From contig CAYYQN010000003.1 of NCBI GenBank assembly GCA_964473865.1, forward strand, positions 2,545 to 66,544: a DNA stretch of 64,000 bases, written 5' to 3'. The position numbers and the translations under genes were made by a program. The stretch is from an uncultured bacterium. Lineage in GTDB: Bacteria; Eisenbacteria; RBG-16-71-46; CAIMUX01. This document shows, in pieces, positions 63,131 to 63,224 of the stretch (positions are counted from its first letter, which is position 1; each line of letters begins with the position of its first letter). The notes beneath the pieces were generated by a model. That model was not told the origin of the DNA. It made no database searches and worked only from the letters and a program-made list of their open reading frames with translations.

Positions 63131-63224
63131 TGTGGACGAAATTGTGGATAAACCTTGCGATCTGGCACCCTGGGGATGTCCATGGTGTGGACAACACTGC
63201 AACGTCCCGTGATATATATAGGTC
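63131..63224. promoter_or_regulatory. second DnaA-box cluster plus AT run downstream of bactofilin gene
   Basis: TGTGGACGA 63131-63139, TGTGGATAA 63143-63151 (perfect reverse-complement of TTATCCACA), TGTGGACAA 63186-63194, followed by GTGATATATATAGG. Confidence 0.45.

Follow-up and report, generated by a model that had tools for sequence, protein, structure and literature searches.

The presence of DnaA boxes in an intergenic spacer at some distance from dnaA raises the question of whether such sites are part of the replication origin, act on initiation from outside it, or serve the promoter of a neighboring gene. In the 64-kb stretch of DNA from a member of the Candidatus Eisenbacteria that was scanned here (the window), an initial annotation had drawn attention to an isolated cluster of three boxes within 65 bp, placed between a bactofilin gene and a lipoprotein promoter and ~8 kb from dnaA, and had asked whether it might resemble the datA or DARS sites of Escherichia coli. 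That description of the locus was confirmed, as the three boxes occupy the positions reported, span 64 bp, and lie 8.3 kb from the dnaA start codon at 54853. A literature search returned nothing combining 'Eisenbacteria' with 'DnaA', and DnaA boxes and bactofilin were found to be co-mentioned only in two general reviews. The comparative analysis described below suggests that the boxes probably form a genuine accessory DnaA-binding cluster rather than an origin core and, more tentatively and by analogy with other bacteria, that control of initiation could be the main role of this cluster, as an origin-proximal accessory DnaA-box cluster (DBC).

Gene context of the cluster

The genes dnaA (53471-54853) and dnaN are both on the minus strand of the window, and the gene order across the region is dnaN, dnaA, a box-containing spacer, rpmH, rnpA, yidC, jag, gidB, parA (at 60360), parB (at 61165), a gene for a 139-aa coiled-coil protein, the bactofilin gene (62587-63036; Pfam PF04519), a 466-bp spacer, and genes for an FGE-sulfatase lipoprotein and a TPR protein. 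The cluster is contained in this 466-bp intergenic spacer (63037-63502), which separates the bactofilin gene from a gene that starts at 63503 and whose product opens with the lipoprotein-signal-like sequence MRRLVFVLFALASPFLWTC and contains the FGE-sulfatase domain. The ParB protein encoded in the window is 80% identical to that of the Candidatus Eisenbacteria MAG L002, and a Logan contig (L001) matches the window without differences and adds 2.6 kb to it.

There are parS-like sites at 60310 and 61749, and no parS or ParB-related element was found within the box cluster; the link between the cluster and the segregation machinery is only positional, in that the cluster adjoins the parAB-bactofilin gene block on its 3' side. 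No DnaA boxes are present in the 50-bp tract with the highest A/T content of the window (60251-60300, 37/50 A/T), and this tract (60251-60325 region) is directly upstream of the parS-like sequence TGTTCCACGTGGAACT (60310) and of a parA promoter-like TTGACC-17-TAGTTT. The 139-aa protein encoded between parB and the bactofilin gene (62125-62544) is a membrane and coiled-coil protein. It can be aligned (E = 1e-10) to the N-terminal portion of an M23 peptidase found in the same slot in the deeper Eisenbacteria lineages L100, L102 and L003; the peptidase domain has been lost in the clade of the window.

The DnaA boxes and their chance expectation

DnaA boxes were defined as 9-mers matching TTATNCACA or, for high-GC bacteria, TT[A/G]TCCACA. 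The sites of interest in the spacer are as follows.

63131..63139, minus strand: DnaA box 1, the weaker member of a tandem pair (plus strand TGTGGACGA, minus strand TCGTCCACA)
63143..63151, minus strand: DnaA box 2, a perfect consensus TTATCCACA (plus strand TGTGGATAA)
63186..63194, minus strand: DnaA box 3, a perfect high-GC form TTGTCCACA (plus strand TGTGGACAA), 43 bp after box 2
63209..63222, no strand: AT run GTGATATATATAGG, present, not a conserved part of the cluster
63239..63247, minus strand: candidate weak box with a TGTGGG core (plus strand TGTGGGACG), a putative DnaA site
63262..63270, minus strand: TGTTGATAG element, DnaA-box-like (CTATCAACA, 2 mismatches), 76 bp after box 3 and co-oriented with it

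Box 2, which the initial annotation had correctly singled out as a perfect consensus site, is the sole perfect TTATCCACA in the window, while box 1 has two mismatches to this sequence and one to the high-GC form TT[A/G]TCCACA. The starts of boxes 1 and 2 are 12 bp apart, and the two sites form a tandem of the type in which boxes are separated by no more than 3 bp and the upstream box is nearer to the consensus (TTATCCACA-att-TCGTCCACA), an arrangement that is likewise found in nine lineages. Boxes 1-3 are co-oriented, and a 34-bp gap separates boxes 2 and 3.

A chance origin of this cluster was ruled out by simulations and by the density of boxes across 251 kb of related DNA. When a cluster was defined as three same-strand boxes, each with at most one mismatch to TTRTCCACA, within 70 bp, none was produced in 1000 simulated versions of the window (first-order Markov model). 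The window also contains 14 matches to TTATCCACA with at most one mismatch, compared with 3.1 expected, and four perfect TTRTCCACA boxes, compared with a simulated mean of 0.28. Across 14 Eisenbacteria lineages, the bactofilin-lipoprotein spacers (6.6 kb in total) contain 13 perfect TT[A/G]TCCACA boxes and the dnaA-upstream spacers (5.5 kb) contain 8, compared with a single one in the other 251 kb; in other words, 21 of the 22 perfect boxes in 263 kb of Eisenbacteria DNA are in one of these two spacers (Poisson P ~5e-31, for counts that are not phylogenetically independent). The concern, voiced in the initial annotation, that similar densities might occur frequently by chance is removed by these numbers.

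The sole perfect box outside both origin-region spacers in the 251 kb belongs to a near-palindromic, box-like pair at 36301-36320, TTGTCCACA-ga-TGTAGACAA, which is within a probable coding region.

Location of the replication origin

The cumulative G-C curve reaches its lowest value at 53,086, a position within the dnaA-dnaN spacer of 558 bp (52913-53470), and there are box-containing elements on both sides of dnaA.

53239..53259, minus strand: probable oriC unwinding module CTACTACTT, a box plus trios between dnaA and dnaN
54888..55159, plus strand: dnaA-upstream box array, with sites at 54888, 54900, 54988, 55053 and 55151

The pattern of a basal unwinding system (BUS) comprises one or more boxes, a short spacer, at least three DnaA-trios and an AT-rich region (PMC8287927). 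In the window, the dnaA-dnaN spacer contains a box (CAACTCACA, 53251-53259), a CGC spacer and the DnaA-trios CTA-CTA-CTT (53239-53247), followed by sequence that is 53% AT. When read from dnaA to dnaN, the order of a box, a 3-nt spacer, CTA-CTA-CT(A/T) and a region of 52-57% AT is kept in the window, L002 (where the box is CTATCCACA), L092 and L095, and the trio motif CTACTACT(A/T) was found in this spacer in 4 of 4 lineages. This element matches the BUS definition (PMC8287927) and is probably the unwinding site of the origin. On the other side of dnaA, the upstream spacer (54854-55484) contains six box-like sites, and the spacing of the array sites at 54888, 54900, 55053 and 55151 (12, 152-153 and 97-98 bp) is conserved in L002, L089 and L092. 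The existence of box modules on either side of dnaA therefore points to a bipartite origin of the Bacillus subtilis type. The dnaA-upstream array opens with a 12-bp tandem pair that has the opposite orientation to the 63131/63143 pair, making the two pairs convergent, and the cluster is 8.2 kb from this array and ~9.9 kb to the right of the trio element.

The cluster lacks the features of an unwinding site. An unwinding module has at least three DnaA-trios (3'-NAN-5', with GAT preferred) within 16 bp of a box, whereas in none of nine lineages does the flank of the cluster contain CTA repeats or more than two NTN triplets in a row. The 40 nt downstream of the pair (read as TTATCCACA-nnn-nnnTCCACA) are only 25-40% AT, and no conserved AT-rich tract was found beside the pair in any of these nine lineages. 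The AT run that the initial annotation had placed after the boxes is present, but it is not conserved (identity of 0.46 vs a background of 0.41, with relatives being GC-rich there), it does not constitute a feature of the cluster, and it is on the wrong side of the box pair for unwinding. The cluster was rejected as a true oriC or DUE because it lacks trios and a skew switch, its flank is GC-rich, its AT run is unconserved, and both the skew minimum and the trio element are at 53.1-53.3 kb.

The two E. coli sites named in the initial annotation fared differently. DARS cores require a box I that is opposed to boxes II and III (PMC5742627), and a DARS-like site was excluded because boxes 1-3 are co-oriented. 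All boxes of the main clade are on the minus strand and hence share one orientation, like the essential boxes of datA; inverted pairs occur in the deep lineages L102 and L003. No IHF site (WATCAANNNNTTR, at most one mismatch) was found in the array in any of 10 lineages, which leaves an IHF-dependent, datA-like site unsupported. The co-orientation, the intergenic position after an operon and the early duplication that would recommend the datA proposal all stand, and a role of this type is plausible without IHF, but membership of the cluster in the datA class is not supported. The lack of trios, a conserved AT-rich tract, an IHF site and an opposed box together indicates that the cluster is neither an unwinding site nor DARS-like.

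Conservation across Eisenbacteria

Orthologous loci, all of which proved to be syntenic, were fetched via bactofilin homologs to give an alignment of nine distinct spacers; a metagenome scan with bactofilin added one close relative only, L082. In 9 of the 11 closer lineages that have diverged spacers, the TGTGGA of box 1 and the TGTGGAnAA of box 2 show no variation, at a spacing of 11-12 bp. The mean identity is 0.79 for box 1, 0.93 for box 2 and 0.62 for box 3, against an upstream-spacer background of ~0.41 to the window. Box 3 is found at exactly +43 bp in five lineages (the window, L087, L089, L094 and L095) and is degenerate or missing in L002, L092, L097 and L099. The same five lineages have the TGTTGATAG element at +76 bp from box 3, and it is recognizable in one or two more; its identity, 0.90, is equal to that of the promoter -35. 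The block containing the candidate weak box (63236-63244) has an identity of 0.70, with a TGTGGG/TGTGAG core that recurs in the alignment, and the TGTGGG core is also found in the dnaA-upstream pair (TTACCCACA at 54900). The other conserved islands of the spacer are an inverted repeat, the promoter, a leader hairpin and the ribosome-binding site. The conservation of the boxes against diverged flanks shows purifying selection, despite the fact that the counts are not phylogenetically independent, and supports the view that the boxes are a real, selected cluster located outside the origin proper yet near it.

As judged from sequence, the association of boxes with this spacer is a deep one, since perfect or one-mismatch boxes are present, in rearranged form, in two distant lineages. 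In L102, whose bactofilin is 54% identical to that of the window, TTATCCACA and TGTGGATAG form an inverted pair ~50-80 bp upstream of the -35, while in L003, whose ParB is 43% identical, TGTGGACAA and TTGTCCACA are inverted, 76 bp apart, and 340-420 bp upstream of the -35. The spacer of a third lineage, L100, contains weak sites only, and the box array is absent from L088 (9487-9762) and L082 (558-1332), with no compensating box cluster in the 19 kb available. The L088 spacer is ~130 bp shorter and has an intact promoter and inverted repeat. Strong boxes are therefore absent from the cluster spacer in 3 of 14 lineages (L088, L082 and L100), suggesting that the cluster is dispensable or has been replaced elsewhere in these bacteria.

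Several other sources of conservation were considered. A hidden coding sequence is unlikely, as the conserved islands of 6-10 nt are set amid unalignable stretches and indels break the reading frame. A known RNA was not found, with no Rfam match at gathering thresholds in the whole window or at E values up to 1 in 63000-63560. There is also no sign of a general bacterial habit of placing boxes after parB, since a box cluster downstream of parB was found at just two (L029 and L052) of the 78 ParB loci examined in other phyla; clusters of at least three boxes at these loci are otherwise next to dnaA or upstream of parB.

Promoter and leader of the lipoprotein gene

The sole promoter-like site near the cluster precedes the lipoprotein gene, and no promoter-like site overlaps the boxes.

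63355..63383, plus strand: σ70-like promoter of the FGE-sulfatase lipoprotein gene (TTGACA-17-TAGATT), in which GCCTTTCCGTTTGACAC is nearly invariant

In the main clade, box 2 is 187-212 bp, and the TGTTGATAG element 67-93 bp, upstream of the -35. An inverted repeat, GAGAY-n5-7-RTCTC (63321-63335), is 10-15 bp upstream of the -35 and can be aligned in L002 and L087-L097; it shows paired changes (GAGATC/GATCTC vs GAGAC/GTCTC), is weakened in the window (GAAAC...GTCTC), and might bind a regulator or act as a weak terminator for the bactofilin operon. The lipoprotein leader (63410-63505) contains a conserved hairpin (GGTCATCCC / GGGATGA) that has no Rfam match and in which a predicted CAGATCTGG-GGATCCGATG pairing would cover the ribosome-binding site and start codon. 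Five lineages possess this element, and a clean deletion has removed it from L002, L094 and L095.

Proposed function and competing explanations

The shared motif and the 12-bp tandem geometry found directly upstream of dnaA make DnaA the likely binding protein, and we infer that DnaA occupies the cluster cooperatively and has a negative effect on initiation from there. In the proposed mechanism, DnaA would bind to the high-affinity box 2 (and box 3), and a second protomer would be recruited head-to-tail onto the weaker box 1, 12 bp off, in the same strong-then-weak tandem geometry as that upstream of dnaA; the resulting complex may reach the co-oriented weaker sites at 63239 and 63262. Since the cluster is only ~9.9 kb from the unwinding module, it would be duplicated within seconds of initiation, and this duplication would double a local sink that holds or inactivates DnaA, so that re-initiation is damped, with a possible side effect on the promoter ~200 bp downstream. 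The oriC-proximal DBCs of B. subtilis, the Streptomyces cluster and E. coli datA are DnaA sinks that damp re-initiation. Like a DBC, the Eisenbacteria cluster is intergenic and near, but outside, oriC, with 3 boxes in 64 bp plus 2 weak sites. Three further observations make a self-contained DnaA-binding module more plausible than a promoter operator: spacing within the array is fixed and the promoter is at a variable distance from it (187-212 bp, or 50-420 bp in the deep lineages), the arrangement of the boxes turns over while their location is retained, and the promoter outlives the loss of the array in L088. Against a sink, a set of only 3-5 boxes would have a small titration capacity, strong boxes are missing from this spacer in 3 of 14 lineages, and the cluster is upstream of the same gene phylum-wide, which would equally fit gene regulation; the lack of an IHF-type site counts against a datA-like hydrolysis mechanism.

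A different proposal, somewhat unlikely in our assessment, is that DnaA acts here mainly as a transcription factor that tunes the promoter of the FGE-sulfatase lipoprotein/TPR operon, or read-through from the bactofilin operon, which would link the initiation cycle to a module for the cell envelope or for morphogenesis. The boxes indeed always precede one and the same conserved promoter and gene, including in the rearranged deep lineages, and those of L102 (~50-80 bp) and the TGTTGATAG element of the main clade (67-93 bp) approach the -35; there is also precedent in the B. subtilis DBCs that regulate sda, ywlC and yydA (PMC3245932) and in the Pseudomonas oriCII boxes that regulate gidAB-parAB (PMC13438810). 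However, the high-affinity pair, at 187-212 bp (main clade) or 340-420 bp (L003), is far from the -35 for control of a σ70 promoter, there is no fixed helical phase between the pair and the -35, no promoter-like site is located over the boxes, and the promoter is unchanged in L088, which has no array. It is considerably less probable that the cluster belongs to the functional origin, either as a third module that loops to those flanking dnaA or as a cryptic, oriCII-like second origin. The strong-then-weak pair with its 3-bp spacer has the geometry of an origin box pair (PMC8287927), as does the dnaA-upstream pair, the two pairs are convergent and 8.2 kb apart, and the region of the cluster is AT-richer than the genome (51% AT over 100 bp). 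Set against this are the lack of DnaA-trios or a conserved AT-rich tract at the pair in any of nine lineages, the unconserved AT run, the position of the skew minimum (53086) beside the conserved trio element, and the loss of the array in L088 and L082. In addition, the spacings of known bipartite origins are far below 8-10 kb.

The remaining alternative, that the motif is bound by another protein or that the boxes are non-functional remnants, appears very improbable. The spacer does have other conserved sites, namely the TGTTGATAG element and the inverted repeat GAGAY..RTCTC, but the boxes match the DnaA consensus exactly, the only other place where they recur is directly upstream of dnaA, they do not vary in a spacer with a background identity of ~41%, and the chance model was rejected. 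We favor an accessory cluster that acts in initiation control. A further and highly speculative idea, which we consider a long shot, is that the convergent pairs at 54888/54900 and 63131/63143 bracket the rpmH-to-bactofilin segment with both parS-like sites, such that DnaA bound at its ends could provide roadblocks or loop anchors that delimit a zone of ParB sliding or condensation. If this were true, initiator occupancy would be physically coupled to centromere organization in Eisenbacteria.

Significance and comparison with known systems

For the Candidatus Eisenbacteria, which have no cultured member, this locus provides a mapped, probably bipartite origin of the B. subtilis type with a trio element between dnaA and dnaN and, on comparative evidence, an accessory DnaA-box cluster that is conserved across much of the phylum. 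While the cluster leaves the general understanding of initiation control unchanged, it lends support to the suggestion that control by DnaA-box clusters near the origin is general and extends beyond the Firmicutes and Actinobacteria, and the ~140 bp fragment with its fixed internal spacing is a compact substrate for in vitro tests of cooperative DnaA binding.

The systems closest to this cluster are the origin-proximal DBCs of B. subtilis and Streptomyces, followed by datA and the Pseudomonas oriCII. The resemblance to E. coli DARS1 and DARS2 is that of a small, non-coding cluster of about three DnaA boxes; in DARS, however, box I is opposed, head-to-head, to boxes II and III, whereas the Eisenbacteria boxes are co-oriented and sites for IHF and Fis are absent.

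The Pseudomonas aeruginosa oriCII is, like the cluster described here, a second group of boxes within the gid/par block, separated by ~8-10 kb from the origin linked to dnaA, and it acts as a DnaA-controlled regulatory region and not as a working origin (PMC13438810). The two differ in that oriCII is upstream of gidA and overlaps the operon promoter, while the Eisenbacteria cluster is downstream of the par-bactofilin genes and ~200 bp before the promoter of an unrelated lipoprotein gene.

In datA, the boxes that are essential share one orientation and are located in an intergenic region close to oriC (PMC5742627). The Eisenbacteria boxes are also co-oriented, with a weak box by a strong one, a gap and another strong box (compare box 7, box 2, gap and box 3 of datA), and they are intergenic, downstream of an operon and near oriC, and hence duplicated early (PMC5742627). 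The cluster departs from datA in that no lineage has an IHF consensus between the boxes, in the 34 bp that separate boxes 2 and 3, and in coming from an unrelated organism.

In B. subtilis, initiation is under negative regulation by six DBCs, which need to be close to oriC for their effect (Okumura et al., 2012; PMC3245932), and DBCs of this oriC-proximal kind are predicted to be widespread among bacteria that lack SeqA and Hda (PMC3245932). The Eisenbacteria cluster differs from these in being located in a spacer downstream of parAB-bactofilin, in having fewer boxes (3 strong and 2 weak), and in belonging to another phylum. In common with B. subtilis DBCs such as thdF-jag and yydA-yycS, and with the Streptomyces coelicolor cluster, it consists of intergenic boxes outside oriC, and it shares with systems of the B. 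subtilis type the conserved rpmH...jag...gidB...parAB origin neighborhood and a bipartite origin that flanks dnaA. As with these DBCs, the Eisenbacteria cluster could serve both in the titration of DnaA and in the regulation of neighboring genes.
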